DNA of 64,000 nucleotides from Escherichia coli (lineage in GTDB: Bacteria; Pseudomonadota; Gammaproteobacteria; Enterobacterales; Enterobacteriaceae): assembly GCF_011045215.1 (NCBI RefSeq), contig NZ_CP049201.1; one strand, 5' to 3'. The notes below the pieces were generated by a model. That model was not told the DNA's origin, did not search any database, and worked only from the letters and a program-made list of their open reading frames with translations. Position 1 is the stretch's first letter. Each line of letters opens with the position of its first letter. Shown here piece by piece: positions 45,183 through 64,000 of this stretch. The translations under genes and the position numbers were made by a program.

Positions 45183-45267
45183 GCCGAAGTGGCGAAATCG
45201 GTAGACGCAGTTGATTCAAAATCAACCGTAGAAATACGTGCCGGTTCGAGTCCGGCCTTCGGCACCA
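45183..45267 (+). tRNA. leuX: tRNA-Leu (anticodon CAA)
   Basis: 85-nt sequence GCCGAAGTGGCGAAATCGGTAGACGCAGTTGATTCAAAATCAACC...GGTTCGAGTCCGGCCTTCGGCACCA; anticodon loop TTCAAAA; long variable arm; CCA end. Confidence 0.93.
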
Positions 45268-46794: not shown

Positions 46795-47934
46795 ATGTCC
46801 ACAATTAACCCCGCAATTTTTTCTTTTTTCTCTGGTTCAGGATTTCTTGATCTTGGATTTGAAAAAAATGGTTATGAAGTGGTTTTCGTGAATGAATACC
46901 ATGCTCCGTTTATGGATGCATATAAACATTCGAGGAAAAAATTAAATATAGCACCACCTCGTTTTGGGTATGCAGAGTGCAGTATTGAAGATGTAGAACA
47001 TGAAAAAATTAAGTCTTCTATGCTTCAACTTAAAAATGAGGGGCGATTGACTGGATTTATTGGTGGTCCACCATGCCCGGATTTCTCTGTAGCGGGTAAA
47101 AATAAAGGTCGAGATGGTGAAAACGGTCGGCTTTCACAAAGCTATATTGATATCATTCTTGAAATGAAACCAGATTTCTTTCTTTTTGAGAATGTTAAAG
47201 GTCTATACCGTACCAGTAAACATAGGGAATTTTTTGACCATTTAAAAACTCAATTAGAATCGGTTGGTTATTGTTTGCATGAAAAACTAATAAATTCTAT
47301 TGAATATGGTGCTCCTCAAGATAGGCAACGAATCATATTGATTGGTTTCCTTGATGAAAAATATGCAAGCCAATTCAATTGGGGGCAAAGAGTCTACCCT
47401 GAAAGAACTGCATTTGAATATAAATGGCCGACGACAAACCAATTTTCAGAAAACACTTCTGTTATAAAACCAAAGGGTATCCCAGAAGAGTTAACAGTAG
47501 AGCATTGGTTCAAGAAAAACCAGGTTGATAATCATCCAAATGCAAAGCATGTATTCGCGGCAAGAGCAGGGCTTGCGAGGTTTTTGACTGTCGAAGAAGG
47601 GGATGATAGTAAAAAATCCTATAAAAGGTTACATAGATGGAGATTTTCACCAACTGCTGCTTACGGTAATAATGAGGTACATTTACATCCTTATAAACCA
47701 AGAAGAATTACTGTTGCCGAAGCATTAGCAATTCAGTCTTTACCAAAAGAATTTGAATTACCTGCTTATATGACTCTGTCTAATATGTTTAAAACTGTCG
47801 GTAACGGTGTACCCTACTTAGCAGCGGCCGGTATTGCCAAATCTATTATAGAGCATTTAGGAATCGAATATGAGAGTAACTGCGGCGAACTTAGCACAGG
47901 CGATTGCCAATCTACCAAGAAACACGCAGTTTAA
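46795..47934 (+). CDS. DNA (cytosine-5)-methyltransferase
   Basis: 379 aa with C5-MTase motifs: I FSGSGFLDLGFE (FxGxG), IV GGPPCPDFS (Pro-Cys), VI FLFENV, VIII QDRQR, X GNGVP near C-terminus; AT-rich. Confidence 0.85.
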   Translation: MSTINPAIFSFFSGSGFLDLGFEKNGYEVVFVNEYHAPFMDAYKHSRKKLNIAPPRFGYAECSIEDVEHEKIKSSMLQLKNEGRLTGFIGGPPCPDFSVAGKNKGRDGENGRLSQSYIDIILEMKPDFFLFENVKGLYRTSKHREFFDHLKTQLESVGYCLHEKLINSIEYGAPQDRQRIILIGFLDEKYASQFNWGQRVYPERTAFEYKWPTTNQFSENTSVIKPKGIPEELTVEHWFKKNQVDNHPNAKHVFAARAGLARFLTVEEGDDSKKSYKRLHRWRFSPTAAYGNNEVHLHPYKPRRITVAEALAIQSLPKEFELPAYMTLSNMFKTVGNGVPYLAAAGIAKSIIEHLGIEYESNCGELSTGDCQSTKKHAV

Positions 47935-48946
47935 TTATGTAAATGTGCGAAATTCGGGAAGAATCATTGTAACGAATGTTCAACTTCCCGAAGGCCCAAT
48001 AGAATTCAAAAGATTCGATCCAAAAAAGGGTGAGACACTGCATAGTTCTAAATCGGAAAGCATCTCCACACAAATGTTGTGGAGATTGGCTAATGCTTTA
48101 CAGGAAGATGTCCCTGTCAATTTGGATCGTATTTTTGGTGCAAGCTATAATACACGTGCTGTTCTCGAAAGCCTTTTGGCCCATACTCCTGAGTTTTATT
48201 GGTGTAAGCTTGATCGCCTTGAGGTAATGAACACTCAGAAAAATATTAAAAAAGGTCACAAGCACCTTATTTATAGACCAAATGACCCACATGAAAATGG
48301 TGTAGCAATAGAACATACTACTAATGTTATAATTTCTGAAATGAATTTAGATGTTGTCCATCAATCAGTTGATATAGAGACAATCTTACCTACTAAAGGA
48401 ATGACGATTGAGGAAAAAAGACGTCATGCACAAATTCAAATCTCATTAGTAAAAATAGGTCATTACTTAGGTTATCGGACATGGGTTGCAGCAAATGATC
48501 GTGGCCTCCAATATAATGGAAAATCTATAGCCCAAATGGATGGGGTCATAGATAATTTAAGAAATGAACAAGTGCTTCAATCATATGATAAAGCTATCAA
48601 AGAAGCTCGGCTTATAGATTGTATTTGGTTTCGAAATGGAAAATTAATGCCTGCAGTTATGGAGATTGAGCATAGCACTGGTATTAAAAGTGGTTTGGTA
48701 AGGATGAAACAATTTTATGATTATGCACCACAGTTAAAAAATATACGTTGGACCGTTGTGGCACCTGACGAATATAGAAATAAAGTTATAGAGTTTTCTA
48801 ATATGCCACAATTTAAAGAATTAGATACTCGATTCTTCCCCTATTCTGCTGTAGAGGAACTCTATTCATTATGTGCAAGAAGGAATCCTCAAGGAATTAC
48901 AGACGATTTCCTTGATGCATTCATGGAAAAGTGTGTGACACATTAA
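47870..48946 (+). CDS. Putative nuclease-like partner of the methyltransferase (candidate restriction endonuclease); function inferred
   Basis: 358-aa ORF; ATG with AGGA SD overlaps MTase 3' end by 65 nt (translational coupling); C-terminal D...E-x-E-x(6)-K-like stretch (LIDCIWF...VMEIEHSTGIK) compatible with a PD-(D/E)xK core. Confidence 0.45.
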   Translation: MRVTAANLAQAIANLPRNTQFNYVNVRNSGRIIVTNVQLPEGPIEFKRFDPKKGETLHSSKSESISTQMLWRLANALQEDVPVNLDRIFGASYNTRAVLESLLAHTPEFYWCKLDRLEVMNTQKNIKKGHKHLIYRPNDPHENGVAIEHTTNVIISEMNLDVVHQSVDIETILPTKGMTIEEKRRHAQIQISLVKIGHYLGYRTWVAANDRGLQYNGKSIAQMDGVIDNLRNEQVLQSYDKAIKEARLIDCIWFRNGKLMPAVMEIEHSTGIKSGLVRMKQFYDYAPQLKNIRWTVVAPDEYRNKVIEFSNMPQFKELDTRFFPYSAVEELYSLCARRNPQGITDDFLDAFMEKCVTH

Positions 48947-49083: not shown

Positions 49084-49893
49084 ATGAGAGTAATTAGCCC
49101 CTTTGAGGAATTGAAGAACTGGTTTAATCTTGATAACTATGAACCGATAAAATCGTTTACAATCAAGGAACTACATAGAGAGATTGTCTTTAGAGAAGCG
49201 ATTTTCGACAGTGTAAATTTTGGATGGGAAGATGATAATCAAAATTTAAGGTCTATCCTTGAAGGTAATCCTATTTTAAGCAGACAAGATAATAATCATG
49301 GTCATTTTGGCAAGGGCCAAAGACATGTTGCGCAGGTTAGCTTTGGTGATATAAAAAAATTAGAGAATAAGTTGATAATGTTTAGCATGGATTTTTTTGA
49401 AGAAAATGGTGATTTCAAAAAAGAGTTGAAAAAGAAACCAATAACAAAAACTATGAGAGACTTTTTTCTCAACAAAAATAGCAGCAAGATGTATGTATCA
49501 TTTGATTTGGGGTTATCTAGTGATGAGGAAATTATATCAGCCCTGCAAACTATGCTTCCAACTCTAAGGAAAGAATACGAGATTGACCCAGTAAAAACAG
49601 AAAAGATAGGGCTCGCAAAAATAAGAAAACTTGTCGATTACAACATTATTCCTATGATGGACTTACTAATTTGGTCAAAATTCAAAAAAGCAAAAATCTC
49701 AAATATGGTCTTGTCTCGTGTGTTGTATCCTGATTTCACTCACGAGATTAGAGGCGAAGATCACATTAAAGATACAGACAGGCCCATTGCTGAGAAGGCT
49801 TTAAATGGAGAGATAACTCGTAGTTTGGAGTACTTTCTTAGTAAAAACAGTCATCTCATCAACATACCGATTTCAGAACTCGGATCTCTCTAG
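49084..49893 (+). CDS. Hypothetical protein (269 aa), no recognisable motif
   Basis: Long AT-rich ORF, same strand as R-M-like pair. Confidence 0.55.
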   Translation: MRVISPFEELKNWFNLDNYEPIKSFTIKELHREIVFREAIFDSVNFGWEDDNQNLRSILEGNPILSRQDNNHGHFGKGQRHVAQVSFGDIKKLENKLIMFSMDFFEENGDFKKELKKKPITKTMRDFFLNKNSSKMYVSFDLGLSSDEEIISALQTMLPTLRKEYEIDPVKTEKIGLAKIRKLVDYNIIPMMDLLIWSKFKKAKISNMVLSRVLYPDFTHEIRGEDHIKDTDRPIAEKALNGEITRSLEYFLSKNSHLINIPISELGSL

Positions 49894-50058
49894 CTATAAA
49901 TCATCATGCAATTGTCAAGGGGATGGTGAAAATATTTTTCTTCCCCTAAATTTCTCTCCATTCTTTCCTCATCTAAATTTTCAGTTATCAGCACTCCCTT
50001 CATAGATACAAATCTGTGTGGCTAATATCTCCTTAACGGAAGCGGAGGAGACAGCCAA

Positions 50059-50265
50059 ATGAATACAACCAATCAAAGCTTAATTCGTTTACCAGAAGTC
50101 TTGAAACGAACTGGTTTCGGCAAGGCCTGGATCTATCGTCTGATCAGTGAAGGTCGGTTTCCGGCACCCGTTAAGATCGGAATTCGTGCCGTTGCTTTTG
50201 TCGAGAGTGAAGTTGACGAGTGGATTCTATCAGTTATCGAAACAAACAGAATTAAAGTTGCTTAA
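50059..50265 (+). CDS. alpA: AlpA-family transcriptional regulator / excisionase-like DNA-binding protein
   Basis: 68 aa; LIRLPEVLKRTGFGKAWIYRLISEGRFPAPVKIG...VAFVESEVDEWI matches the AlpA/MerR-like HTH of prophage CP4-57-type regulators. Confidence 0.85.
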   Translation: MNTTNQSLIRLPEVLKRTGFGKAWIYRLISEGRFPAPVKIGIRAVAFVESEVDEWILSVIETNRIKVA

Positions 50266-50893: not shown

Positions 50894-52156
50894 TTGAAAT
50901 ATAAAATAAAAAGATTGAAGAATAAAGATGGTATCAGAAGTTGCATTATTATTAATGAGAGCAACGGATTACCCTTGGTTTATTCTAACTTATATATGAG
51001 TGTTATTTCACGAACAAATAGCTATTCATTTTCAACAATGGAAGCAATAGCAAATGCTTTGCTTTTATTTGAAAGATATAATGCTTACATGAATGTGGAT
51101 GTTTTTGATATGGTAAATCCTGACATCGAAAAACTTGTCTCGAACAAAGGATATTTATTCGGGTTAATGAATGCCCTTTCTTACAGAAACGACTTAGAGA
51201 ATGTTACAAGCATTCTTAAAGAACAACATGTCTCTAAAAGAACCCTTTATTTCAAGATAATGACAATTGAAAATTACGTCAAATGGTTTTTTGATAACAT
51301 TGCTATCAATAATATTGATTCTTCTCGTTATGAAGCAATCAGTCGAGCATTTGATTTTATAAAGCCAAGAATAGAGAACGGAAAGAATTACAATATTGAA
51401 AGCGAAAGCAAATCATTGACAAATGAGCAAGTTACAACTTTGACTGATATGGTAAGTGTTAAATCTAAGATTAATCCATTTTCGGAGCATGTAAGGTTTC
51501 GAAATAATCTAATAATTAAAATTTTATTAGAGACAGGTATTAGGGGAGGGGAACTACTTAATATTAAGTTGGTTGATTTTGACTATGTCCACAAAAGTCT
51601 ATGCATAGTAAGAAGGCCAGATGATCAAAACGAACCACGATTAAGGCAACCATTGGTTAAAACTTTAGAAAGAAAAATACCATTGAGTATAGAATTGACT
51701 GAGTTAATACAGAATTATATTAGTGATTTCAGAGGTAAGCAGTGTCATGCAGGGGAGCATGACTATCTGCTTGTTACTCATAGCAGTAAAGGTCAATTAG
51801 GTCATGCATTAACTATTTCAGGTTATCAGAAAATTTTCGAACAAATTAGGAAAAATAGTAATGTTTTGAGCGATATTGTGGGGCATTCGCTAAGACATAC
51901 TTGGAATGTGAAATTCTCAGAAATGATGCTCATGAATTCGAACTCTCAGGAATATATTACTTATGAGAAAGTAAGAAATTATCTTATGGGGTGGAAAAAG
52001 AATAGTACAACCTCAGATATCTATAACCAAGCATTTATAGCACAAGAAAGCCGAAAAATAATGGCTGTTATTAATCCACTCAAAAACATAGTAGAGGACA
52101 AATCCAATGTTTCAAACTCTAAGAAAGCTACAAGAAAGTCAATATTCGGTTTTTGA
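50894..52156 (+). CDS. Tyrosine recombinase 1 of a three-recombinase operon
   Basis: 420-aa ORF (TTG at 50894; first ATG at 50996); conserved ETGIRGGELLNIKLVDF (box I Arg), HSLRHTW (HxxR) and ...SDIYNQ (Tyr) catalytic elements. Confidence 0.75.
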   Translation: MKYKIKRLKNKDGIRSCIIINESNGLPLVYSNLYMSVISRTNSYSFSTMEAIANALLLFERYNAYMNVDVFDMVNPDIEKLVSNKGYLFGLMNALSYRNDLENVTSILKEQHVSKRTLYFKIMTIENYVKWFFDNIAINNIDSSRYEAISRAFDFIKPRIENGKNYNIESESKSLTNEQVTTLTDMVSVKSKINPFSEHVRFRNNLIIKILLETGIRGGELLNIKLVDFDYVHKSLCIVRRPDDQNEPRLRQPLVKTLERKIPLSIELTELIQNYISDFRGKQCHAGEHDYLLVTHSSKGQLGHALTISGYQKIFEQIRKNSNVLSDIVGHSLRHTWNVKFSEMMLMNSNSQEYITYEKVRNYLMGWKKNSTTSDIYNQAFIAQESRKIMAVINPLKNIVEDKSNVSNSKKATRKSIFGF

Positions 52157-53432
52157 AACCAAGGATGGTAATTTCAAAGTGAACTTTTCTTATTCCAAGT
52201 GGAAGATAAGTGAAAGTATAACATTGAACATTGATTCTTTAAGAGTGGTCATCAGTGCATATATACCTATCAAAACCACTTTGGCATATTTCGCTATAAA
52301 TTATAGTGCCAGTTATACTAAGAAAATGTTTTATGCAGTAAAGCATTACATTAAGGCCTGTAATACGAATGATAGCTTGTTTTCTAAAGATTGCATAAAG
52401 TATTACTATAAAGTTGTGAGCTCATTAGATTACACACATGCAGAGACAGTCAAATATTTTTTTATGAAGATGAGTGGTCTTTACCCATCTTTGTTTTCGG
52501 CAGAAGCAATCATATTTTTAGAAAATATTAAAGTTAAAAAAACAAATGCAAACAAGTCTATAAAGACACATGATTATAAAAAAGGTCCCTTTAGTGACTC
52601 GCAATTAAAGGTAATTATAGATTCTGTAGCGATAGCTTATAAGGAAGAAAAGGTAAGTCTGTCAAACTATCTGCTAACCTTCCTTGTTGCATATTCCGGG
52701 CGGCGACCTATGCAAATATCTCAACTTGAAGCTGGTGATCTCTTTGCTTTTAATGGAGAGTACTTTCTCAATATCCCAAGAATTAAACAACGAAATGGAT
52801 ATAGAAAAGAGTTTAGAAAATTACAAATTCCAGAAGAGCTTTTTAGCCAATTGACATATCTCGTTGAAGCTGTGAATTCGCTGGTCAGTGACACATTAAA
52901 AATCGATTTAAGTGAAAAACAAAAGAGAAAACTACCAATTTTTATAAACACATATCCATTCAAAAAAGGATGTGTTGAGCTAAACATGATTGAAAGTGGT
53001 GGATTAAAACTTAACCCCTATGCCATAACACTAAAAATAAGGAACACTATAAATCGTTCAATAAATGAATATCAAGCCTATCTGGGGTGTATAAATTCGC
53101 GCAGATTTAGATATTCATTAGGCACTAAGGTTGCACAATTGGGTTATAGTCCTTCACTGATAGCAAATGTTTTGGACCATTCTTCAATCAATTCTGTTAT
53201 GAGTTATATAGAAAATACAGCGGAAAATGGCAAGAGAATTAATGAAGCTGTAAATGAACTAATGAAGCCACTGGCTAACAAATTTATTGAGGGAAAAGAG
53301 CTTCAGAAAGAGTTAGATTCTTTGAAGCATTTGATAGAAGAATACTGCGGTGGATATAAAACTAACTCTTTTGATAATACAGCAATATCGTTAGTAACTA
53401 ATTCTATCGACGATATGATCAATAGCATTTAA
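52107..53432 (+). CDS. Tyrosine recombinase 2 (divergent catalytic motifs)
   Basis: 441 aa; SD AGAGGA before ATG; AYSGRRPMQISQLEAGDL (box I), RRFRYSLG...LDHSSINSVMSYIE (box II-like with Tyr); overlaps upstream gene by 50 nt. Confidence 0.7.
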   Translation: MFQTLRKLQESQYSVFETKDGNFKVNFSYSKWKISESITLNIDSLRVVISAYIPIKTTLAYFAINYSASYTKKMFYAVKHYIKACNTNDSLFSKDCIKYYYKVVSSLDYTHAETVKYFFMKMSGLYPSLFSAEAIIFLENIKVKKTNANKSIKTHDYKKGPFSDSQLKVIIDSVAIAYKEEKVSLSNYLLTFLVAYSGRRPMQISQLEAGDLFAFNGEYFLNIPRIKQRNGYRKEFRKLQIPEELFSQLTYLVEAVNSLVSDTLKIDLSEKQKRKLPIFINTYPFKKGCVELNMIESGGLKLNPYAITLKIRNTINRSINEYQAYLGCINSRRFRYSLGTKVAQLGYSPSLIANVLDHSSINSVMSYIENTAENGKRINEAVNELMKPLANKFIEGKELQKELDSLKHLIEEYCGGYKTNSFDNTAISLVTNSIDDMINSI

Positions 53433-53447
53433 AAGAAGGATAAAGTG

Positions 53448-55052
53448 ATGAAAGAAATCCATGATAAAATGATTAATAACTTCATTATCGCTAATAAGGC
53501 CCATGCGAAAAATTTTGGAAATTTTGAGTGGGATAATTCAAGTTGGGGAGGCGGAATTACATTTTTTAGCGGAATCAAGGTTAGAATGGGGAACAAGAAT
53601 AAGAAATTAATGAATTATAACATTGCAGAGTTCGCAAAAGCATATGTATGGCATGAGTGCTTTCATGATTTATCTGTAGCTTTCAGAGTGCTGAGATTAT
53701 TTAGGATATTAGAAATTGCCATAGGTAAAACAAATAAAGAAGTTAAGATTTCAAGTATAGATCATAAAGTATTAGATGAAGTTATGACTATTGTTCAAGA
53801 AAATTTTGCAATATCCACTTCTTATAAAATATATTTAGATCTTAGGGTATTATGTTCTTTTATGTCTAAGAACGAAATGTTGCCAGAATCCATTACACGA
53901 TGGTCATATCCATTTAAGGCATATGATGCTTACACAAATAGCACAATGGATTCGATGGGAAATTTATCCAATCAGAAAAAACTTCCTGATGAAAAGGCTA
54001 TAGATTTTATTGGTAAAATATTTAGCTCTAATCCAGTTAATGAAAGGGATATATTTACATCTTCTATTTTTGCATTGCTCTTATGTGCTCCATCTCGAAT
54101 TAGTGAAATTATGCTTTTAGAAGAGGACTGTGAAGTTATAGTTGAAGATAGTAATGGCATATCAAGATATGGTTTGCGATTTCTTTCTCTGAAGGGCTTT
54201 GGATACAATACCAAATGGATTCCAGACTGTATGGTTTCTGTAGCTTCAAAGGCTATCATGCGATTGAAAAAACTTACAAGGAATGCAAGGGTTGTTTCTC
54301 GGTTAATAAAAGCAGGGGAAATTAATTTATACGAGTCATTAAACAAAAGTGCGTTTGATTGTTTAACAATTGAAGATCTCCACAAACTTGGCTTTGTTAT
54401 AAATCAATTAAATATCTCCCAAGAAAATCTAAAATTCTTGGCTAAGATAAAACATGGTACAGTCAGTGTAAAAGCATTTTGGATTTATATAGAGCGAAAG
54501 AATGTTAATTCTGAAAATATTAATGCTAATTTATGCTCCATAAATCATAATTTATTGGACTCTATCAAGGGTGCTGATATTTTTACAACAATTAAGGCAT
54601 CTTCAAAGTATTTTAGAGCGGATTTTCGCACCGATAATATGAATAACATATTTCATAGGAATATACATTTTAACTGTGATGGTTCTGTTTTAATTTTCCG
54701 CAGCCATCAAATTAGACATTTACTTAATACTATAGCTCAACGAAGCGTATTGTCAGAGATACAAATTGCCCAATGGTCTGGGAGAAGGAGTGTTAAGCAG
54801 AATTCAGTATATGATCATATGTCTCACAACGAGTTATCAGAACTATCAAGGAAACTATTGAACGGAAACACCTACGAAGAAACAAAAATTTCAGCATCTT
54901 CATTTAATGAACAATCGATTATTATGAATTTGATTAAAGATAAATTTGAAAAACTAGAATTAAAAATCCAAAATTCAGATCCAAGAAAAAGAAAATATAT
55001 TCTGGAAAAAATTAAAGATTTAAGATTGGAAATTGAATACATATTAATGTGA
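53448..55052 (+). CDS. Tyrosine recombinase 3
   Basis: About 534 aa (GTG-ATG at 53445/53448); CAPSRISEIMLLEEDC (box I), HQIRHLLNTIAQ (HxxRH), ...SVYDHMSHNE (Tyr). Confidence 0.7.
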   Translation: MKEIHDKMINNFIIANKAHAKNFGNFEWDNSSWGGGITFFSGIKVRMGNKNKKLMNYNIAEFAKAYVWHECFHDLSVAFRVLRLFRILEIAIGKTNKEVKISSIDHKVLDEVMTIVQENFAISTSYKIYLDLRVLCSFMSKNEMLPESITRWSYPFKAYDAYTNSTMDSMGNLSNQKKLPDEKAIDFIGKIFSSNPVNERDIFTSSIFALLLCAPSRISEIMLLEEDCEVIVEDSNGISRYGLRFLSLKGFGYNTKWIPDCMVSVASKAIMRLKKLTRNARVVSRLIKAGEINLYESLNKSAFDCLTIEDLHKLGFVINQLNISQENLKFLAKIKHGTVSVKAFWIYIERKNVNSENINANLCSINHNLLDSIKGADIFTTIKASSKYFRADFRTDNMNNIFHRNIHFNCDGSVLIFRSHQIRHLLNTIAQRSVLSEIQIAQWSGRRSVKQNSVYDHMSHNELSELSRKLLNGNTYEETKISASSFNEQSIIMNLIKDKFEKLELKIQNSDPRKRKYILEKIKDLRLEIEYILM

Positions 55053-55061
55053 GGAGATTAT

Positions 55062-55460
55062 ATGGCAAGAAAGTTTTATGATAAAGAAATAAAAGCTATT
55101 GTTAAACTTATTGAAACCTGGAGTAAGCCTGATTTCACTTGGGATTCTTTATGCGTGGCTTGCAAAAAAATTTTAGGTAAAGTACCTACACGGCAAGCAT
55201 TAAGCCAGCATAGTGAGATTGTCGTTGCGTATAGGACCAGAAAAAGATCTGGTATGGTTAAACGTCAAAATACGAAGTTACCCGGTAGCCTGAGCCTTGC
55301 GGCGAAAAGAATAGAACGACTTGAAAATGATAATTCGGCACTAAAATATGAAAATAATAATTTACTGCTTATGATTCAAAGAATGCACGAAAATGCTTAC
55401 AGGCATAATATATTGGCTTCTATTCTTGAAGAAGAATTTCCACAGAGAGCAAGAAAATAA
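55062..55460 (+). CDS. Small basic protein, fourth gene of the recombinase operon (possible DNA-binding accessory factor)
   Basis: 132 aa, starts 9 nt after recombinase 3; Lys/Arg-rich with predicted coiled-coil C-terminus. Confidence 0.55.
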   Translation: MARKFYDKEIKAIVKLIETWSKPDFTWDSLCVACKKILGKVPTRQALSQHSEIVVAYRTRKRSGMVKRQNTKLPGSLSLAAKRIERLENDNSALKYENNNLLLMIQRMHENAYRHNILASILEEEFPQRARK

Positions 55461-55545: not shown

Positions 55546-55983
55546 ATGCAATTTATGGACAAACAACACAATTTTCCAGTGGAAACACTGGAAGAGCAGC
55601 TTATTATTATCGTTGATAAATATATCTCAAAACGGTACCAGCCGGGCGATAAAAGTTTCTCATACCAGCTATACCTGCTTTTTGTTGGCTATCACTTAAA
55701 GTATTTCTACCCCAAAAAACTTTATACTCGCTCTAATCGCAACATAGACAACATTATGACAATGTTTAGTTCTGTATACAAATGTCTTACAAGTACTTTG
55801 TTACAGCGATTAAATAATAAGGAAGCTGTTATCAGGGAGCTAAACTCTCTCGTTAACTATATTGATAACAATCAAGAACGAGCAGAAGAAATCTTTATAG
55901 CTATCAAAACTCAATATGAGATAAAAGCAATAGAGAAAGAACTAACCCATGAAGTCGTTAGAGTAAAAAATGTTAGATTATAA
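55546..55983 (+). CDS. Hypothetical protein (145 aa)
   Basis: ORF ending at an intrinsic terminator. Confidence 0.5.
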   Translation: MQFMDKQHNFPVETLEEQLIIIVDKYISKRYQPGDKSFSYQLYLLFVGYHLKYFYPKKLYTRSNRNIDNIMTMFSSVYKCLTSTLLQRLNNKEAVIRELNSLVNYIDNNQERAEEIFIAIKTQYEIKAIEKELTHEVVRVKNVRL

Positions 55984-56010
55984 AAGCTCCCGAAAGGGAG
56001 CTTCATTTTA
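55982..56010. terminator. Bidirectional intrinsic terminator
   Basis: AGCTCCC-GAAA-GGGAGCT hairpin with flanking A/T runs between convergent genes. Confidence 0.7.
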
Positions 56011-56023
56011 CTAATTTTCTTTA

Positions 56024-56287
56024 TTAATAACTTCCTACTTGCCAGCCATCATCTGATTTTATTAATTTAACTGTTCCAGCTTGCTTTGTTCCGCTCATAT
56101 CCATAATTATATTGCACTTATAGCTTTTATCAGATTCTTTTGTGCAATCTACTTTTTTTACTGAAGTCAGATAGCTTCCAGTCCATTTTCGCATAGCTTT
56201 AAAAATATCATCTTGGGAAGGCTCACTACTACATGCAGTAAGAAGAAATACGGAAATAATAACAGCAAGGACCGAAGATATTTTCAT
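56024..56287 (-). CDS. Small lipoprotein
   Basis: 87 aa; signal peptide with lipobox LLTAC. Confidence 0.6.
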   Translation of the reverse strand: MKISSVLAVIISVFLLTACSSEPSQDDIFKAMRKWTGSYLTSVKKVDCTKESDKSYKCNIIMDMSGTKQAGTVKLIKSDDGWQVGSY

Positions 56288-56311
56288 TAGACTTAATCCT
56301 GATTAAGTATG

Positions 56312-56698
56312 TTACTGAAAAATGCCAGATTTTGTATTATTATTATCAGTAGAGAATGTCCATTTGCTGACAATTTCGCCTTTAAAATCTATTTCAAGAG
56401 TTTTGGACTGAGTCTGTGAACCACCAGTTAGTAGCCCAACTACAGGAATGAAAGTCGAGGCATTGAACTGATTGTTATACATAAAATATCTCCATTGCTC
56501 GTTGCCATCATCAAGAGTCGTTCTTGTATCTGGTTCACCTAACTTAGCGAGTAGCTCGTTCTTAGTAGTCTTGTTTTTAATGATCTTTGACTGAAGACTT
56601 TGTGCAGTTTCATTTTCAATTTGTTGGTTCCCGGATGTTGAGCAGCCAGAAATTAAAAATATTGCAATGAAAAAGGCGGTAACAATAGATTTATTCAT
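56312..56698 (-). CDS. Lipoprotein
   Basis: 128 aa; signal peptide with lipobox LISGC. Confidence 0.6.
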   Translation of the reverse strand: MNKSIVTAFFIAIFLISGCSTSGNQQIENETAQSLQSKIIKNKTTKNELLAKLGEPDTRTTLDDGNEQWRYFMYNNQFNASTFIPVVGLLTGGSQTQSKTLEIDFKGEIVSKWTFSTDNNNTKSGIFQ

Positions 56699-56727
56699 TC
56701 TATCTTCCTTATTATATTTGGTCAGGG

Positions 56728-57006
56728 TTAACTTTTATGTGTGAAAACGGCTCTGTGGGCAAATTTCTTGCGTAAATAAAATCTTAAAGAAATTGCTGAG
56801 GCAAAATAGATAACGACAGTTAATATAAAACTTTGACTGATAGCGAATATGAAGAAAGCAATTACTAACAGCACAATTCCTATGAGTAAAGCTAACCAGG
56901 CCGAAGGTTCACCATAATTTATTGTTGCGTGACAGCCGATACAGACACGAACTCCGAACGGACTCTCTTTGAAGCAGAACGGGCACTTAATGGTCTCTTT
57001 ACTCAT
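56728..57006 (-). CDS. Small membrane protein with N-terminal zinc-ribbon
   Basis: 92 aa; CPFC...CIGCH then one hydrophobic helix. Confidence 0.5.
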   Translation of the reverse strand: MSKETIKCPFCFKESPFGVRVCIGCHATINYGEPSAWLALLIGIVLLVIAFFIFAISQSFILTVVIYFASAISLRFYLRKKFAHRAVFTHKS

Positions 57007-57259
57007 ACAAACTCCGTTTATTCAACAGGTTCCTGATACTACAAATTGTTTAAAAATCATCAGGTTCTTTTCAGGGATTCTCGATGAATAATTATCTTTA
57101 GTAAAATCACTTGTACCGATCGATGTTTGAATCATGATAGGTAAAAACTATCATAACTAGATTATCGATCTGTATTAACGATCAATAATTTCTTGACATA
57201 ATATAAATTAGTTACTGTATAGTTAAGAGTGTTTGAGAATAATCAATACAAGTAATTGT

Positions 57260-58405
57260 CTATAAACGAATTTTTATCGCCTTGTTTAAAGGTTTCATTG
57301 CGTAGATATTTGAGAAGGTCGTGTGTGTTTTGTGAAGAATGGTCTTACCAAAGCTTCTCAGAAGCTCGATGTAATGCTTTATGGAAGCAAGCCACTCTAC
57401 GAATCTGAGATGCTTTTGCCGTTGTACTGCATTTTTTTGAAGAATCTTTCCTACGATTTCGTTTCGTTTGTCTTCTCTAAGCCGTAATTCCAGTTCTGCA
57501 ATTTTTTCAACGATACTTTCCTTTCTCTCAGTGGTTTTCAACACTGTTGCAGGAGCAGGAGCAGCAGGTTGGTCTTTTGTCGATATGTCGCTTCGTAGAG
57601 CTTCTAAGTGGTCGGGGTTGTAGTTAAGCCGATTACTGAGATTTGCCCAGGAGTAGCTCTTGCCCAATTGTGAAGCTTTGAAAGCTATGCCTGTGTATTC
57701 GAAAGAGAAGCCGTTCATTTTACCGGTAGAGGCAATATTGGCCTTCCAAGATACTTCAGCTTCTTCCAGCCTCTTGATAAAAGTTAGAAGGTCCGGCTTA
57801 TCAGATAAACTTTTATCAAGTATCTGCTGCAGAGCTTCTCTTGGTGAAAGCACCCCGGTTCGTTCCGATAGCATTTTCTCATTACGGGACACTCTCTTCC
57901 GCTTCGGTTGTGCTTGCGAGGGGGGAGATGCAGTTTTGGTCACTGTCAGGCCATGAGCGATTTCGAGTTTACTGATGATCTGTGTGCTGATGAGGTTTTC
58001 GTTCCTACCCAAGTAGAGCTTCCCACCATTGAGATCTATGCGACTTGCGATAATGTGTATGTGCTGGCCATCGTCGTCATGAAGCACATAGCAACGAAGG
58101 TGAGTATCCCTGAACCCCATCCTCTTCATGTAGTCATCTGCGATAATGGACCACTGTTCATTCGTTAGTGTTTCACCGTCGGGTAAGCGAAGTGAGTTGT
58201 GCCAAACGGGTTTTGCGACATCTAGGCGAAGATGCTTGGTGCTATCGAATTCAGCGATCATTTCAACGGCTGAATCACTTAACATGTTCCCGCCAATGAC
58301 GACTGGATCGCTTTTGTGGTGTGCTCCCGATTGTAATACATAACGAACAACACCAGCGAAGCTCTTACCCCTCTTGATCTTCCGCATACCCTTCACGAGG
58401 GACAC
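57260..58405 (-). CDS. Mobilisation relaxase (MobA/VirD2-like nuclease domain)
   Basis: 381 aa; three-histidine relaxase motif HDDDGQHIHIIASRIDL; immediately downstream of a MobC-like gene. Confidence 0.75.
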   Translation of the reverse strand: MSLVKGMRKIKRGKSFAGVVRYVLQSGAHHKSDPVVIGGNMLSDSAVEMIAEFDSTKHLRLDVAKPVWHNSLRLPDGETLTNEQWSIIADDYMKRMGFRDTHLRCYVLHDDDGQHIHIIASRIDLNGGKLYLGRNENLISTQIISKLEIAHGLTVTKTASPPSQAQPKRKRVSRNEKMLSERTGVLSPREALQQILDKSLSDKPDLLTFIKRLEEAEVSWKANIASTGKMNGFSFEYTGIAFKASQLGKSYSWANLSNRLNYNPDHLEALRSDISTKDQPAAPAPATVLKTTERKESIVEKIAELELRLREDKRNEIVGKILQKNAVQRQKHLRFVEWLASIKHYIELLRSFGKTILHKTHTTFSNIYAMKPLNKAIKIRL

Positions 58406-58739
58406 TCCAAAAATCTGTTCTTAACAAGTTGTGACGAAGCTCTTCAAGTTGTCGCTTCACAGCGAAAAGCTCTGTATGAGTAAGCTGGCTATCTTTACTC
58501 TTACTGTCGATATGGAGAGCAATACGATTCAACTTTTGTGATATGTCAGACAATTTTTTCCAGGCTTCAGTATTAATTGTCGGTACTACTGGTGGCAGGT
58601 TTTGCAGAAATGACATGCGGAGCCATTCACCTTTACTTTTATTACCTCGTTTTATATTTAAAATCTGTAATTCATTGTTGTTGAGTCGAACACTTATACA
58701 ATGTATTCTAATTCTGTCATCTAATCTTAATTTAGCCAT
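58365..58739 (-). CDS. MobC-family relaxosome accessory protein
   Basis: 124 aa; overlaps relaxase start by 41 nt; sequence pattern typical of MobC. Confidence 0.65.
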   Translation of the reverse strand: MAKLRLDDRIRIHCISVRLNNNELQILNIKRGNKSKGEWLRMSFLQNLPPVVPTINTEAWKKLSDISQKLNRIALHIDSKSKDSQLTHTELFAVKRQLEELRHNLLRTDFWSVPREGYAEDQEG

Positions 58740-58885: not shown

Positions 58886-60049
58886 TTAAGGATGATCTAT
58901 TGAAACAAACTTTTGACTAAACTCCAGCCATCTTGCATTATCAACATCCTTCACAAAAGCAATCAGACCTGCGACATGATTGTAAAAGCCAATTGGAGAG
59001 TCAAATTTTTCATGTCTTGCAACTTCTGAGAGACCAAATTTTTTTATTGAGTAAAGGTGGCGTTCAATACGTTTATAAGTTTGTTTAGATAATCGAGGGA
59101 CATTGCCATCAACAAGTAATCCTAAAACTATTTTTTTTGAACCAGGTCCAGCTACTCTTATTTTGCTTACGTTTTCTTTGAAATGGTGCTTACGAATGAT
59201 GCTGATAATGTTATTTTGTATTTTTCCAACCGAAACACCGTCGGGTAGAGTACCACCGCAGGATAATGTTATATCATCAGCATATCGAGTATAAGTGAAG
59301 CCATATTTATTAGCATATTCAGATAGAGAAATATCTAACTTTACAGTGGCTAAATTACTAAGCATTGGGCTACTCGGTGCCCCTTGAGGTAGCACTCCTA
59401 ACGGCCATGGTTCTGATATGTCCCAAAAAAGGCTCTTCTCTTTATTTTGTCCGTAAAGCTTATATTCCTTAGTTGAGTGCTTAGGAACAGAAATTAGAGA
59501 TTGTAAATGTTGTGGTAAACGTATAGTTGTGCATAGCCTTGATAGTTCAAATGCTATTAATGGCCGATATCCAGCATTTTTAAAAACCATATAAACATCA
59601 GATTCATTTATTGAATAAAAGAAATCGGAAATGTCGAATTGGAAGAGCCATTTAGCACCACAATGCTGTTCTGCACATTTTCTGATGCCACCATTAGGAT
59701 GGAAAGCAAAAGAAGTATTATGGGGAACTAACTTTTTTAATATTTCACTATTGATGAAATGCTGTACTTTAAATATCTCGCCAGTTACAGCATGAATATG
59801 GCGTCTTCCACCTGAACGTTTTTTTATAGCAAACATGCGATAATTTGCTGATTCACGGCGGCGTGATACAGTGGATCGTAGCAAGCGATAATCAACACCA
59901 GTAATTTTTGAAAGATGGCGTAATGTAAAAATTACAGGGAGATTATTTTTCTTCAGATTACTTGCATAATTTCTTAAGTTTAGAGCCTGTGTCTTCCCTA
60001 AGGATGACTCTGCATTTTGATAAAGTTGGTGTGCTGACCAGATTTCCAT
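58886..60049 (-). CDS. Retron-type reverse transcriptase
   Basis: 387 aa; RT motifs FQFDISDFF (A), LPQGAPSSP (B'), YTRYADDITLS (C); by-eye alignment to remembered retron Ec86 RT (QGAPSSP.LANL...YTRYADDLTLS, IDLEDFFPS); C-terminal VLGLLV in place of the retron VTG. Confidence 0.85.
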   Translation of the reverse strand: MEIWSAHQLYQNAESSLGKTQALNLRNYASNLKKNNLPVIFTLRHLSKITGVDYRLLRSTVSRRRESANYRMFAIKKRSGGRRHIHAVTGEIFKVQHFINSEILKKLVPHNTSFAFHPNGGIRKCAEQHCGAKWLFQFDISDFFYSINESDVYMVFKNAGYRPLIAFELSRLCTTIRLPQHLQSLISVPKHSTKEYKLYGQNKEKSLFWDISEPWPLGVLPQGAPSSPMLSNLATVKLDISLSEYANKYGFTYTRYADDITLSCGGTLPDGVSVGKIQNNIISIIRKHHFKENVSKIRVAGPGSKKIVLGLLVDGNVPRLSKQTYKRIERHLYSIKKFGLSEVARHEKFDSPIGFYNHVAGLIAFVKDVDNARWLEFSQKFVSIDHP

Positions 60050-60237
60050 TCACCTATCCTTTGAGCCCAGGGGGCCATCAGTGTCATACATTTTCCGAGT
60101 CCTCGATGGCCGTTAATGTATGACATTGAAGGGCGGCGTAGCCGCCTTTGCGTCAGATCTTTCCAGAGATGTTTCTCCAACATCCCCATCCGTTGTAACA
60201 AAAGCCACAACAGATTCTGTCAAACAAGCGGTGAACT
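60050..60237 (-). ncRNA. Candidate structured ncRNA (possible retron msr-msd-like template) in the PRTase-RT spacer
   Basis: 188-nt non-coding spacer directly upstream of the RT; 15-bp stem (60078-60092 pairs with 60115-60129, one G-U) with 22-nt loop; adjacent GGCGGC-GTA-GCCGCC hairpin (60132-60146). Confidence 0.4.
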
Positions 60238-61458
60238 TCACTCATCATTGTTTAACGGCTGAACGGAGTGCTGATCAGCACACCAAGACTCTGGAATGTA
60301 AAGACCAAAATCCCATACACTATCGTTTTTAACATGCCTAGAATTTACAAGTATGTCAAGTCCGAATTTAGATAATCGTTTTTGAGTTGTCAATAGTCCT
60401 AATGTCTCTGCATATATGAGTAGTTTTTCTACATACGAACAATCAACATTCAAACGTAAGGCAATGCTTTTGTTATCTCTGACACCTCTTTTTATAAGTT
60501 TTAGTAAATTTATAATTTCGGGAGATAAAGATGAATGGGGGGAAGTGTTATGCTTTGTTCCATTTTCTAACAAGGCAAGCAGCCATCCTGGAATTGCTCT
60601 ATCAGGCATTAGTCCTTGCCATTTTTTATTAGAAAACCATAGTATTCCAGGAAGGTTATTAGGGACGCTATGATAAAAAATTATATTAGATAAAACATTA
60701 CCATAGCCAAGACGAGCCCATGGAGGAATTTTGGTTTGATTTTTACAAAGATTGATTATTTCATTATACTGCTCACCCCACCGAGTTTCTAACCAATTTT
60801 CATTATATACGATGTTACTTATGAAATTGATTTTTTCAGATTTTCTATATTTTCTTACTCCATGGTCTGAGCCGCGAATAGTATTGATTATTCTATTTTC
60901 AGAACCTAGTGTTCTGGCGAAAGAAATTAAAGTTAATCTTACTAGTCCTAAACTCCACCAACTTAAAAAGGTAGGGTTATCGAGCATGGCATTAATAAAT
61001 CCGGATACTCTATCACCACTACCAATCGAATCATCAATAAGTAAAAAATCGTTGACTTTAGATTTTTTCAGATCATTGAGTGATGGATGATCTAAAAACA
61101 TAGTTTTATTAGACCGCACAAGGTTTGAAATAATTGAATATACTAAGTCTTCGCTACCTTGCGAATGACCTGGTCTATTAACAACATCACCATTAAGGTC
61201 CCATAATACTTGTTTGTCTGGATCTAATTTGCGAACTGAATAAAGGGCATAATTTTTATTTTTTGGTAAATCAGAAATGCTCTTTTGAAGCCATATGGTA
61301 AACTCATCTCTACTTACAAAAGTTAACTTGCTCAAGATGTTTTTTGCAATCGCTTTTTGGCTGCTATTAAATTGCATAAGCCATTGAGCTATTTCCTGAG
61401 AGGATTCAATTTTTTCTACTGAAAGTATTTTAAATTTAGGTTTGTCTCTTGTTTTCAT
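60238..61458 (-). CDS. Phosphoribosyltransferase-like protein (putative RT-associated effector)
   Basis: 406 aa; PRPP-binding-like motif KVNDFLLIDDSIGSGDR (hydrophobic strand, DD, small-Gly); encoded immediately upstream of and co-directional with the RT. Confidence 0.55.
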   Translation of the reverse strand: MKTRDKPKFKILSVEKIESSQEIAQWLMQFNSSQKAIAKNILSKLTFVSRDEFTIWLQKSISDLPKNKNYALYSVRKLDPDKQVLWDLNGDVVNRPGHSQGSEDLVYSIISNLVRSNKTMFLDHPSLNDLKKSKVNDFLLIDDSIGSGDRVSGFINAMLDNPTFLSWWSLGLVRLTLISFARTLGSENRIINTIRGSDHGVRKYRKSEKINFISNIVYNENWLETRWGEQYNEIINLCKNQTKIPPWARLGYGNVLSNIIFYHSVPNNLPGILWFSNKKWQGLMPDRAIPGWLLALLENGTKHNTSPHSSLSPEIINLLKLIKRGVRDNKSIALRLNVDCSYVEKLLIYAETLGLLTTQKRLSKFGLDILVNSRHVKNDSVWDFGLYIPESWCADQHSVQPLNNDE

Positions 61459-61693: not shown

Positions 61694-62296
61694 TTATTCA
61701 TATGATTTGTATTTCTTTTCATCTACTAAATTTATTATGGACGATGAGGTTTTATATATCAACTTTACATTGTGTAAAGATATATTGTGTTTGCTAATAA
61801 AATATAAAAGATCCAATAGCATCTGTTCTTGCCGTTCTTGTGGAAACTCTAATTTTACGATTGGAGTAAATTCAACAATAAAACCACTATTCAACAGTAG
61901 TTTTATGTAGCTAAATGAGTTTGGCGTAACTGTTTTGATTTTTATTATTTTATTAGTAATTAGATGCTTATGGTTTATAATAATGTGAGGGTTGAGCAGT
62001 GCCATATCATATGACATGAATGTTAAACCATGACTATCTATTATGTTCAAGTCGATACCAAGTTGTATAAACATATCGATTATTGCTTTGCTATGTATCC
62101 AGTTATAAAATAAAGGTGTCCTTCCATAGTTATCTAAATGATTTAGGTCGGCTCCTGCAGCTAAAAGAGATGTTGTAAGTAAATAGTCATTAGAATAAAA
62201 TAATGGTGTACGACCACAATTATCCTTTAAGTTTATTAAACCATTGTCTATGAATATATTAGATAAATTATTGTGCATTTTACCTCCTTTTATCAT
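61694..62296 (-). CDS. Ankyrin-repeat protein
   Basis: 200-aa ORF; two clear ankyrin repeats (GRTPLFYS...LLAAGADLNHLDNYGRTPLFY) plus degenerate third (DSHGLTFMS). Confidence 0.6.
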   Translation of the reverse strand: MIKGGKMHNNLSNIFIDNGLINLKDNCGRTPLFYSNDYLLTTSLLAAGADLNHLDNYGRTPLFYNWIHSKAIIDMFIQLGIDLNIIDSHGLTFMSYDMALLNPHIIINHKHLITNKIIKIKTVTPNSFSYIKLLLNSGFIVEFTPIVKLEFPQERQEQMLLDLLYFISKHNISLHNVKLIYKTSSSIINLVDEKKYKSYE

Positions 62297-62339
62297 TATG
62301 TATATTAAAAAAAGGAGGTTGTCAATATTTAGAGGTTAG

Positions 62340-62588
62340 TTAACCACCAAATGTTTTTTTCTTAGGTTGTGGGGGCTCTGCATTAAGTATGATAGTTTTA
62401 ATATTTGCATTTATTTGATTGATATTATCAGTCAATATATTAATAACTGATAATGCTTCTACAGGTGTGCTAAATGATGATTCTAAAAACACGCCTGAGC
62501 CTTTCAAAAATATATGGTAAGTGAGTATGCCATTTTCTTCATTTTCATATATATCATAAAGTTCATTTACTGTTTCGTACAATTTCAT
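62340..62588 (-). CDS. Hypothetical small protein (82 aa)
   Basis: ORF between the ATPase-partner pair and the ankyrin gene. Confidence 0.45.
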   Translation of the reverse strand: MKLYETVNELYDIYENEENGILTYHIFLKGSGVFLESSFSTPVEALSVINILTDNINQINANIKTIILNAEPPQPKKKTFGG

Positions 62589-62643
62589 TATTATACTCCT
62601 TGATAATGATGGTTTATTTCAATGGGCTCGCGATATCACTACC

Positions 62644-63519
62644 TTATAAATGATCTCCAATGTGAGCAATAGCGATTTGTGCCGGTCTATCAGGAATTCT
62701 ATTAAAGAAGCCAAAGTATATTCTATTGTAGTAATAAGTTCCTTTTCGATTAGTATTGTCCATGTATTCAAGTTTATAATGGAATTCACAATTCACGTCT
62801 TTATAGATACAATCACCCACTTTAAAATCACGTTTTAATTCCCCTATGGCTCGTTTATTTTTGCCTCCACCTTCTGGTGTTACAAGATAAGGTAACGATG
62901 AATTCATAATTCTAATGTTATGTTGTGAGTCATTAGGTATAATTGTATAGTTATTAACAAAATAAAGAAATTCAGTGATGCTTTTCAAAAAATTTTCATA
63001 TCCACCTTCAATTTTCCTAATAAAATTAAAGGTTTGTGGTGGGTTATCCAAAAAAATGACATTCTTGAAAATGTTTTTAATATTGTCAGCATATTCATCA
63101 CAATCCGATGGGAATTCATCAAGGATTTTCTTAGAAAGATCAATTATTTCACTTTCACTAGAAACTGTATTATCCTTTTTTAAAGGTATGTCTGGAGATT
63201 GATAGGCACAGAGTTTTCTTTCGGCAAGTATCGATGGGGATGTATTGATGATATTTAGAAGTTCATTGCAGCCTATTTCATCCAATAAACTAATTTGGCC
63301 TATTTTATAATACTCATTAACAAGGCCACCGTAATCAGGGTTTGTTGAAAATAATTTAGTGACAAATTTTCCATCAAATTCATTGGAGCGAAGAAACTTT
63401 ATAAAATCTGAATCCACTCTCTCTACAAGTGCTTTAAGATCTTTAATCTGGTTAAAAATCTTAATTTGTTCTTCTTCAAGAGAAAAACTATCTATGAACA
63501 AGCAAACACCTGCTTTCAT
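62644..63519 (-). CDS. Hypothetical protein, partner of upstream ATPase (possible degenerate HNH-like nuclease)
   Basis: 291 aa; starts 9 nt after the ATPase gene stop; C-terminal C-x6-C-x2-H-x9-N-x10-N segment (DCIYKDVNCEFHYKLEYMDNTNRKGTYYYNRIY) loosely HNH-like. Confidence 0.5.
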   Translation of the reverse strand: MKAGVCLFIDSFSLEEEQIKIFNQIKDLKALVERVDSDFIKFLRSNEFDGKFVTKLFSTNPDYGGLVNEYYKIGQISLLDEIGCNELLNIINTSPSILAERKLCAYQSPDIPLKKDNTVSSESEIIDLSKKILDEFPSDCDEYADNIKNIFKNVIFLDNPPQTFNFIRKIEGGYENFLKSITEFLYFVNNYTIIPNDSQHNIRIMNSSLPYLVTPEGGGKNKRAIGELKRDFKVGDCIYKDVNCEFHYKLEYMDNTNRKGTYYYNRIYFGFFNRIPDRPAQIAIAHIGDHL

Positions 63520-63528
63520 GAAATCCCC

Positions 63529-64000
63529 TTAATTTTCAATATCAGGAGTATTAAATGATCCTGTCATAATGGTATACATATCAATTGATTGCTGGTCAAA
63601 GAATCCTTTCGGCCAACTAGAAAGTTTTCCATCTTTGCCAATAGATATCTTTTCTGCAGTAGATTCATTATTCTCATGTGAAATATAAAATAACGAAATT
63701 AGCTCAGGTGAAAAGTCAGGAGATGTTCTTGCTACGACACGGATTCCGTTGAGAAGGTGATCGCTATGAGTTTCTATGAATACCTGTACTCCCGCTTGAG
63801 CAGTGTAAGCTATTAATCTACCCATATAGCTTTGTCCTCTAGGGTGCAAATGGGCTTCCGGGTTTTCTAAAACTACTAATTCGCCCGGTTTTGCTAAAAG
63901 TAATGCTGAAACAATACTCAAAGCATAGCTATAACCAAAACCAATGTTTTTGGGTTTAGTTTGTTTTCCTGACTCAGCCTGTATTGTGTTATAAGCAATG
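63529..64000 (-). CDS. ABC/AAA15-type ATPase, C-terminal part (DUF3696-like); 5' end beyond window
   Basis: Frame open to window edge (ORF-track 'M' is TTG); ...GFGYSYALSIVSALLLAKPGELVVLENPEAHLHP (signature/Walker B/D-loop) and FIETHSDHLL (H-loop). Confidence 0.7.
   Translation of the reverse strand, partial: IAYNTIQAESGKQTKPKNIGFGYSYALSIVSALLLAKPGELVVLENPEAHLHPRGQSYMGRLIAYTAQAGVQVFIETHSDHLLNGIRVVARTSPDFSPELISLFYISHENNESTAEKISIGKDGKLSSWPKGFFDQQSIDMYTIMTGSFNTPDIEN

Follow-up and report, generated by a model that had tools for sequence, protein, structure and literature searches.

The window analyzed here, a stretch of 64,000 nucleotides of Escherichia coli contig NZ_CP049201.1 (assembly GCF_011045215.1), holds three short minus-strand open reading frames (ORFs) at 56024–57006, next to the genes for a relaxase and its accessory protein MobC. 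A first-pass annotation of the window had described two small lipoproteins and a zinc-ribbon membrane protein at this position, co-oriented with the relaxase operon, and the sequence confirms the ORFs, the protein types and the shared strand. We call the genes ZR, lpp128 and lpp87, and together the trio. We find that the trio is part of the backbone shared by one family of integrative mobilizable elements, and we tentatively favor a role in exclusion of incoming DNA at the cell envelope. The trio and its flanking signals are as follows.

56728–57006, minus strand: ZR, a predicted inner-membrane zinc-ribbon protein of 92 amino acids (sequence, hydropathy and charge)

56312–56698, minus strand: lpp128, a lipoprotein of 128 amino acids (lipobox ISGC, Cys19, Ser at +2)

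56024–56287, minus strand: lpp87, a lipoprotein of 87 amino acids (lipobox LTAC, Cys19, Ser at +2)

57040–57215, minus strand: conserved non-coding block upstream of ZR (alignment across 11 islands)

55984–56003: G+C-rich hairpin between lpp87 and a convergent gene, hyp145 (8-bp stem with 5 G-C pairs, T-run)

All three are real genes under purifying selection and not chance ORFs, since their order is conserved in related islands and their ratios of nonsynonymous to synonymous substitution (Ka/Ks) against orthologues in other islands are low: 0.04–0.07 for lpp128, 0.13–0.24 for ZR and 0.12–0.40 for lpp87, with 0.17–0.33 for the relaxase. A Shine-Dalgarno-like motif precedes each gene, and the intergenic gaps measure 29 nt (ZR to lpp128) and 24 nt (lpp128 to lpp87). 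Because a 253-nt intergenic region holding the conserved block separates ZR from the relaxase gene, the trio is probably a transcription unit of its own. The hairpin at the opposite end is a probable two-way terminator; the terminator scan called it for the plus strand only, and for the strand of the trio the A-run before the hairpin reads as the T-run.

ZR carries two CxxC knuckles roughly 10 residues apart (CPFC at residues 8–11 and CIGC at 22–25), followed by hydrophobic helices at about residues 36–56 and 60–76. The loop joining the helices is only ~3 residues long, so that almost nothing is exposed to the periplasm, and both ends of the protein are predicted to be cytoplasmic because the N-terminal region and the C-terminal tail (RFYLRKKFAHRAVFTHKS) are basic (positive-inside rule). 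An exhaustive HMMER search gathered a family of ~75 clusters of 90–100 amino acids, which share the ribbon, two variable helices and a C-terminal basic motif, R-V-x-F-x-R (RVxFxR); Cys8/11/22/25, Y31, G32 and F88 are conserved in the family alignment. DZR-type Pfam profiles match 13 of 37 family members (DZR 13, DZR_2 7, Zn_Ribbon_1 2), and the ZR of the window itself has no zinc-ribbon profile match at E ≤ 0.01. The knuckle spacing and the family matches together identify ZR as a predicted DZR-type zinc ribbon.

The two remaining proteins have lipoboxes with Cys19, which, with the two helices of ZR, bears out the lipoprotein and membrane-protein assignments of the first-pass annotation. The residue at +2 is never Asp across either lipoprotein family, and by the Lol sorting rule of E. 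coli both proteins are predicted to be targeted to the outer membrane. Structural modeling gives lpp128 a two-helix, three-strand BamE/BLIP (SmpA_OmlA-type) fold with elongated hairpins, and structure comparison matches it to BamE/BLIP/OsmE, to BtiO, an immunity protein of the type VI secretion system (T6SS), and to TpgA. Its score of 13.7 bits (E 0.056) falls below the gathering score of 23.2 for Pfam BamE / SmpA_OmlA (PF04355). BamE is a housekeeping subunit of the β-barrel assembly (BAM) complex, encoded by a core chromosomal gene and binding BamA/BamD, whereas lpp128 is carried by mobile elements, and an orthologous role seems unlikely for a gene located next to a relaxase in an island of 35% G+C. 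The lpp128 family has an invariant hydrophobic, Gly-rich loop, FIPxxGxxxGG (residues 83–93), which is not known as a feature of canonical BamE. The profile phrog_3135 matches lpp128 at E 3.4e-23 and a relative in phage PhiR26_1 at E 2.9e-48. The label ‘SEN1984 family lipoprotein’ is given by PGAP to E. coli orthologues of lpp128 (e.g., the L028 copy, 67% identity), and a scan of the window copy with NCBIfam release 20 returned no SEN1984 family.

The lpp87 family is marked by invariant Cys19, E22-P23-S24, Cys48, Cys58 and Trp82. A model of the protein (pLDDT 81) shows one helix on a curved four-stranded sheet, a minimal NTF2/cystatin-like arrangement. Foldseek matched NTF2-like domains at probabilities of 0.92–1.0, yet with E ≥ 0.009, which is not significant, and TM scores of 0.3–0.55; the nearest structures are the PBP2a N-terminal domain, 3k7c and TcpC (3ub1). 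In other islands this position can be taken by genes for ~105 amino acids, the long alleles of a family in which lpp87 is the short allele, and PGAP calls lpp87 relatives ‘cell wall-binding protein’. For all three proteins of the trio, Pfam and NCBIfam gave sub-threshold matches only, and a PDB sequence search with the family profiles gave nothing significant.

The position of the trio is a property of the island family. The order mobC, relaxase, non-coding block, ZR, lpp128, lpp87 and convergent hyp145 is kept in ~20 island loci from E. coli, Citrobacter, Enterobacter, Photorhabdus and Pluralibacter. These islands occupy at least four insertion sites (leuX, beside ypjA, mutS-ygbA, and beside tRNA-Val/Asp) and differ in their integrase/recombinase modules and in their defense cargo (retron, Kiwa, Abi, restriction-modification, HNH and others). 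The suggestion that the three genes may simply be cargo is therefore not supported. In all related islands examined, the cargo on the flanks changes but the trio stays beside the relaxase, as part of the backbone. Roughly 290–297 of 5426 complete E. coli genomes (~5%) carry the module, always on the chromosome and nearly always in single copy; a megablast search of the module against plasmids found no match, and a single-sequence scan of genome contigs found 9 close loci. ZR adjoins the relaxase wherever both lie in the retrieved locus, even where lipoproteins have been lost, as in one island without lpp128 (L017) and one group without either lipoprotein (L033–L035). The first-pass annotation had named homologues in chromosomal contexts unrelated to mobile elements as what would refute its reading. 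This is essentially not what we see: the trio was found only in mobile elements, and just a few ZR relatives at ~30% identity (L019, L027) have contexts that lack recognizable mobile-element genes.

The components of the module vary in different ways. Compared with the window copy, ZR falls into identity groups of 86–100%, 68–73% and 42–47%, and lpp87 into a short form (64–98%) and a long form (37–44%); lpp128 has 67–97% identity and the lowest Ka/Ks of the module. ZR and lpp87 alleles occur in all combinations, and none tracks the relaxase type. By analogy, such discrete, reassorting alleles beside a conserved partner resemble the specificity determinants of exclusion systems, such as the variable traS beside the conserved traT of the F plasmid.

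A strongly conserved part of the module lies outside its genes. The non-coding block (~150–176 nt) retains 75–99% nucleotide identity in all of the islands, including those whose relaxase protein is down to 51% identity, and surpasses the neighboring genes in conservation throughout the related islands. It contains promoter-like hexamers (−35 TTAATA and −10 TATGAT, 57178→57150) overlapped by palindromes, ATTATTGATC-N9-GATCGATAAT and TTATGATAG-N7-CTATCATGA, together with three GATC sites that are conserved and an inverted repeat at 57114–57174. In the EARL island (ROD21 type) of CFT073, the lipoprotein-ZR operon is preceded by a related block, more than 3 kb from a MOBQ relaxase; this block lies in a divergent promoter region, the other arm of which drives DUF4755 and a BamE-like pseudogene. 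Another related block precedes a lone lpp87-like gene in a locus, L036, where no relaxase is present. Because these copies lie away from a relaxase, we read the block as probably the promoter-operator region that controls the envelope operon, with an operator that is possibly Dam-sensitive. That it is an origin of transfer (oriT), or serves both roles, is a weaker candidate that we consider doubtful. No conserved oriT-like sequence was found in the region upstream of mobC, where the ribosome-binding site alone is conserved.

The CFT073 island links the trio to a described group of elements. Alongside its MOBQ relaxase it encodes a 91-amino-acid ZR homologue (57% identity over the ribbon), a BamE-like lipoprotein pseudogene that is homologous to lpp128, and a lipoprotein of 176 amino acids. 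The last was considered as a long relative of lpp87 and rejected, as the signal peptide alone aligns. Two further proteins of the window island have counterparts in CFT073, the DUF6387 protein (26% identity) and an AlpA-like helix-turn-helix (HTH) protein (50%), the latter of which is the excision factor in ROD21. In ROD21, the MobA/MobL relaxase gene SEN1980 is followed by SEN1981A (a 264-bp gene for a membrane protein), SEN1982 (a lipoprotein), SEN1983 (an exported pseudogene) and SEN1984 (378 bp, BamE-like by Phyre2) (PMC3198454, PMC10655114). The window island thus resembles ROD21 and the EARL islands in the ZR family, the BamE-like lipoprotein family, the upstream block, DUF6387 and the AlpA-like excision factor (PMC3198454, PMC10655114, PMC6035254). 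It differs from them in gene order; in its relaxase, of the PF03432 type rather than MOBQ MobA/MobL; in their TraD and type IV pilin genes, none of which was seen among the genes examined in the window island; and in their second lipoprotein (176–180 amino acids), which is not detectably homologous to lpp87. EARL islands are marked by a P4-like integrase at a tRNA gene, an AlpA-like excision factor with the DUF6387 gene, a MOBQ relaxase with TraD, and type IV pilin genes. Because the relaxase family differs, and with an integrase at tRNA-Leu, an AlpA-like HTH protein and DUF6387 all present, the window island is a relative of the EARL islands that shares modules with them and not a member. The co-travel of two protein families and the block with unrelated relaxases is good neighborhood evidence for a shared function that is not specific to one relaxase. 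The AlpA-like and DUF6387 proteins are the only other proteins common to both island families, which makes them candidate regulators of the block.

Relatives of ZR and lpp128 also occur singly in phages and other elements. A scan of IMG/VR found the lpp128 family on 178 viral contigs, 80 of which were kept for context (4 of the 80 are mis-binned islands). In 33 of the 80 the gene lies 51–1477 bp downstream of, and co-oriented with, cI-type repressor genes of several immunity types, and in ~30 it lies between tail tube/chaperone genes (Phage_tail_2, DUF6246) and the tape-measure gene, accompanied by other morons (Arc-like, Bro-N). The ZR family was found on 22 viral contigs by a scan with a subgroup alignment, the full ZR alignment being too divergent; one copy sits among lambda-like tail genes, between K and I, and adjoins AbiU2. 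ZR relatives are further found in the accessory region of an inovirus prophage, on 3.9-kb Mob+Rep plasmids and on 31-kb linear plasmids. The position directly after cI is that of lambda rexAB, and the after-cI and tail-gene sites are where temperate phages keep protective genes expressed in the lysogen (lambda rex, HK97 gp15, cor). In temperate phages, the solitary relatives of ZR and lpp128 sit at such lysogen-expressed moron sites.

Several other carriers of these families are worth recording. Distant lpp128 homologues (31–44% identity) occur on Burkholderia F-type conjugative plasmids, phage-plasmids and temperate phages. On a Burkholderia gladioli plasmid (L005, 9067–9465), the BamE-like lipoprotein gene lies downstream of traG, near genes for a DsbD-like protein and a 5.4-kb YadA-like adhesin, and this protein may act as a TpgA-like adhesin helper rather than in exclusion. 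A circular Klebsiella ‘plasmid’ of 2772 bp (L038, NZ_CP103493.1) holds only an annotated site-specific integrase gene and an unannotated ZR-family gene, and may be an excised mini-element. The IMG/VR contigs L042–L045, filed as viral, are mobilizable islands with mobC, the relaxase, ZR, lpp128 and a recombinase trio.

The first-pass annotation had suggested, without confirmation, entry exclusion or a surface function. Three observations lend this idea indirect support and lead us to favor exclusion as the function of the trio: relatives at moron sites, reassorting alleles, and the barrel-binding or inhibitor fold of lpp128. On present sequence evidence, we consider it nearly an even chance that the trio is an envelope exclusion module directed against incoming mobile DNA, whether conjugative or phage. 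From a repressed, GATC-rich promoter in the block, the operon would place ZR in the inner membrane and lpp128 and lpp87 at the outer membrane, and the carrier cell would thereby become a poor recipient for further conjugative or phage DNA. On the inner leaflet of the outer membrane, lpp128 would bind a β-barrel or periplasmic protein and so disable it as a target for conjugative adhesins or phage receptor-binding proteins. By analogy with TraS/Eex, ZR would be the allele-specific component at the inner membrane, acting through its cytoplasmic ribbon and tail, and lpp87 would add another variable factor in the periplasm. In this scheme the regulation, the outer-membrane sorting, the binding partner and the exclusion phenotype are all inferred.

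Precedents exist for parts of the proposed exclusion module. BamE binds BamA, and BLIP-type and immunity proteins inhibit their targets. TpgA is a BamE-fold barrel binder of the trimeric autotransporter AtaA (bioRxiv 10.64898/2026.01.22.700529), and orphan surface-exclusion lipoproteins (Sfx, also known from IncC plasmids) are found on integrative mobilizable elements, as is MbeD on ColE1 (PMC11493245). With TraS/TraT, Eex, TrbK, Sfx and MbeD the trio has in common its place beside transfer genes and the combination of a small inner-membrane protein with one or more outer-membrane lipoproteins; with systems of the TraS/TraT type, it shares one variable, allelic component and another that is conserved. 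With T5 Llp, phi80 Cor, HK97 gp15 and lambda RexAB, the likeness is that lpp128 and ZR relatives occupy the same lysogen-expressed sites, and lpp128, like Llp and Cor, is predicted to be a lipoprotein of the outer-membrane type. The trio differs from Llp and Cor in lying in a mobilizable island rather than a phage. We know of no described exclusion protein with a cytoplasmic zinc ribbon and C-terminal tail such as those of ZR.

Several points weigh against exclusion. Searches of Pfam, NCBIfam, the PDB and fold matches revealed no sequence or fold similarity of the trio to TraT, TraS, TrbK, Eex, Sfx, MbeD, Llp or Cor (in the match of lpp128 to Llp, 8a60_B, the signal peptide alone aligns, E 0.56, and Llp is not among the fold matches). 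PADLOC-DB v2 contained no defense model matching any of the three proteins. Unlike TraS/TraT-type systems, the island does not encode a mating pore, and it is not obvious what a classical entry-exclusion protein would then act on in the donor. The putative promoter is overlapped by palindromes, a sign of tight repression, but several exclusion genes are known to be expressed constitutively. Given the islands that have lost one or both lipoproteins, the three proteins need not act as one machine. Finally, ~10 genomes carry the module at two places, against ~6 double carriers expected by chance on a rough estimate; with the observed count close to the expected one and so few carriers, this comparison is uninformative on exclusion.

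A bolder form of the proposal, a previously unrecognized two-membrane exclusion system common to mobilizable islands and temperate phages, strikes us as improbable when taken with all of its parts. Here the BamE-fold lipoprotein would disable a barrel used by both conjugative adhesins and phages, the allele-specific ZR would stop DNA from crossing the cytoplasmic membrane, the conserved, GATC-rich promoter guarded by palindromes would react to newly entered DNA according to its methylation or regulatory state, and ZR alleles would define exclusion groups among defense islands.

Among the rivals to exclusion, the one that survives best, while still unlikely, is that the trio is envelope immunity or fitness cargo. 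In such a scheme lpp128 would serve as an orphan inhibitor or immunity protein against a toxin that acts in the periplasm (a T6SS effector, bacteriocin or lytic enzyme) or as a host-interaction factor, and the other two proteins would act independently. The BLIP and BtiO fold matches fit this idea, and so does the reported attenuation of SEN1982 mutants in mice. However, the fixed position in the mobilization module and the shared block point to the life cycle of the element itself, no toxin gene is adjacent, and the periplasmic loop of ZR offers little for such a role.

A donor-side accessory role in transfer is less probable again. ZR would anchor the relaxosome or nicked DNA at the inner membrane and connect it with the coupling protein of a helper plasmid, the lipoproteins would build or hijack the mating junction, and the block would be oriT. 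This would explain why ZR lies immediately downstream of the relaxase, even without the lipoproteins; why its relatives occur on 3.9-kb plasmids with little besides rep and a MobA/MobL relaxase gene; and why the relaxase adjoins the one non-coding stretch of the module that is strongly conserved. NTF2-like folds are also found in the conjugation proteins VirB8 and TcpC, the latter (3ub1) being among the lpp87 matches. On the other hand, ZR alleles do not co-vary with relaxase alleles, and ZR relatives occur without a relaxase in the inovirus prophage, as lambda-like tail morons, on the integrase-only circle and on the 31-kb linear plasmids. The lpp128 relatives that follow cI in phages argue against it too, as do the CFT073 block and operon at their distance from a relaxase of another family and the L036 block with none. 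Least probable of all is abortive-infection defense against phages. ZR, as a small membrane protein with two helices, would detect a phage cue in the cytoplasm by means of its ribbon and permeabilize the inner membrane under modulation by the lipoproteins. The defense-island setting (a type III-A retron and an NsnC-like protein in the window, Kiwa and Abi in related islands) and the ZR relative beside AbiU2 in a prophage moron cluster suit this reading, but PADLOC returned no match, none of the proteins has an effector-like domain, the trio stays the same as defense cargo varies, and lipoprotein partners would be unusual for such a system.

The island that carries the trio is inserted at tRNA-Leu (leuX). 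The tRNA-Leu(CAA) gene occupies 45183–45267; G+C content is 51% before it and 35% from the integrase gene at 45457 to the end of the window. From ORF sizes, we infer that the genes before the tRNA follow the lptF-lptG-yjgR-ahr-leuX order of E. coli. Word-index protein searches gave matches that all lie within Enterobacterales, and the closest protein matches are from Salmonella enterica. The genes that accompany the trio in the module are listed here.

57260–58405, minus strand: relaxase with a MobA/VirD2-like nuclease domain, MOBP-like (PF03432, E 1e-23; TraI_MobP_relax, E 3e-18)

58365–58739, minus strand: mobC, a MobC/NikA-like accessory protein and the first gene of the mobilization module (weak NikA-like match, E 0.008; conserved synteny)

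55546–55983, plus strand: hyp145, an unannotated protein of ~142–145 amino acids, convergent with the trio (conserved synteny)

55062–55460: hyp132, an unannotated gene accompanying the trio (island comparison)

The convergent gene hyp145 is present in every island locus that reaches past the downstream end of the trio, at 41–90% identity and with Ka/Ks of 0.07–0.18. Identity with DUF4755 was considered and ruled out, there being no similarity on comparison. hyp132 is missing from some of the more divergent islands. Neither protein matched a family in profile-library scans that included Pfam and PADLOC, and both are candidate regulators or further members of the module.

The rest of the island consists of recombination genes and likely defense cargo. 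Directly upstream of mobC, at 58886–61458 on the minus strand, is a type III-A retron with a reverse transcriptase (PADLOC RT_III-A, E 6e-160) and a PRTase-CE/wHTH protein (PRTase_III-A, E 2e-93). An Rfam scan of the island recovered the tRNA-Leu alone and no msr/msd RNA. Further likely defense cargo lies on the same strand at 61694–63921 and comprises a protein of 200 amino acids (61694–62296; ankyrin-like by eye, with a weak PDC-M72A match), an NsnC-like protein (62644–63519; PADLOC E 6e-94) and an ORF of 130 amino acids (63529–63921); the island continues beyond the end of the window. On the plus strand, a recombinase-trio-like module of three tandem genes (50894–55052) lies within the island backbone. 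Homologues of the first two are annotated in RefSeq as tyrosine recombinases in E. coli, the third encodes 535 amino acids, and the order is kept between islands at identities of just 26–38%. The genes for the DUF6387 protein and the AlpA-like HTH protein lie at 49084–50265 (plus strand). Following the integrase gene, at 46795–48946 on the plus strand, are a Dcm-type cytosine methyltransferase gene and an overlapping ORF of 358 amino acids, a pair that is present in E. coli L001 and IAI1 and missing in L002, and thus marks a variable cargo slot.

In the ROD21 papers cited here, the counterparts of these genes appear only as a membrane protein and lipoproteins without an assigned role (PMC3198454, PMC10655114). 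The conserved operon, the shared cis-acting block, the allele structure and the link to two families of prophage morons are new with respect to those papers. Much of the variable anti-phage defense and virulence cargo found in E. coli, Salmonella and Klebsiella resides on this island family and the ROD21/EARL islands. If the trio does act in exclusion, it would shape the circulation of defense islands and of the helper plasmids, and would add an unrelated set of proteins to the small list of exclusion mechanisms. Because it joins two families that occur singly as prophage morons, one function could cover several hundred phage genes.

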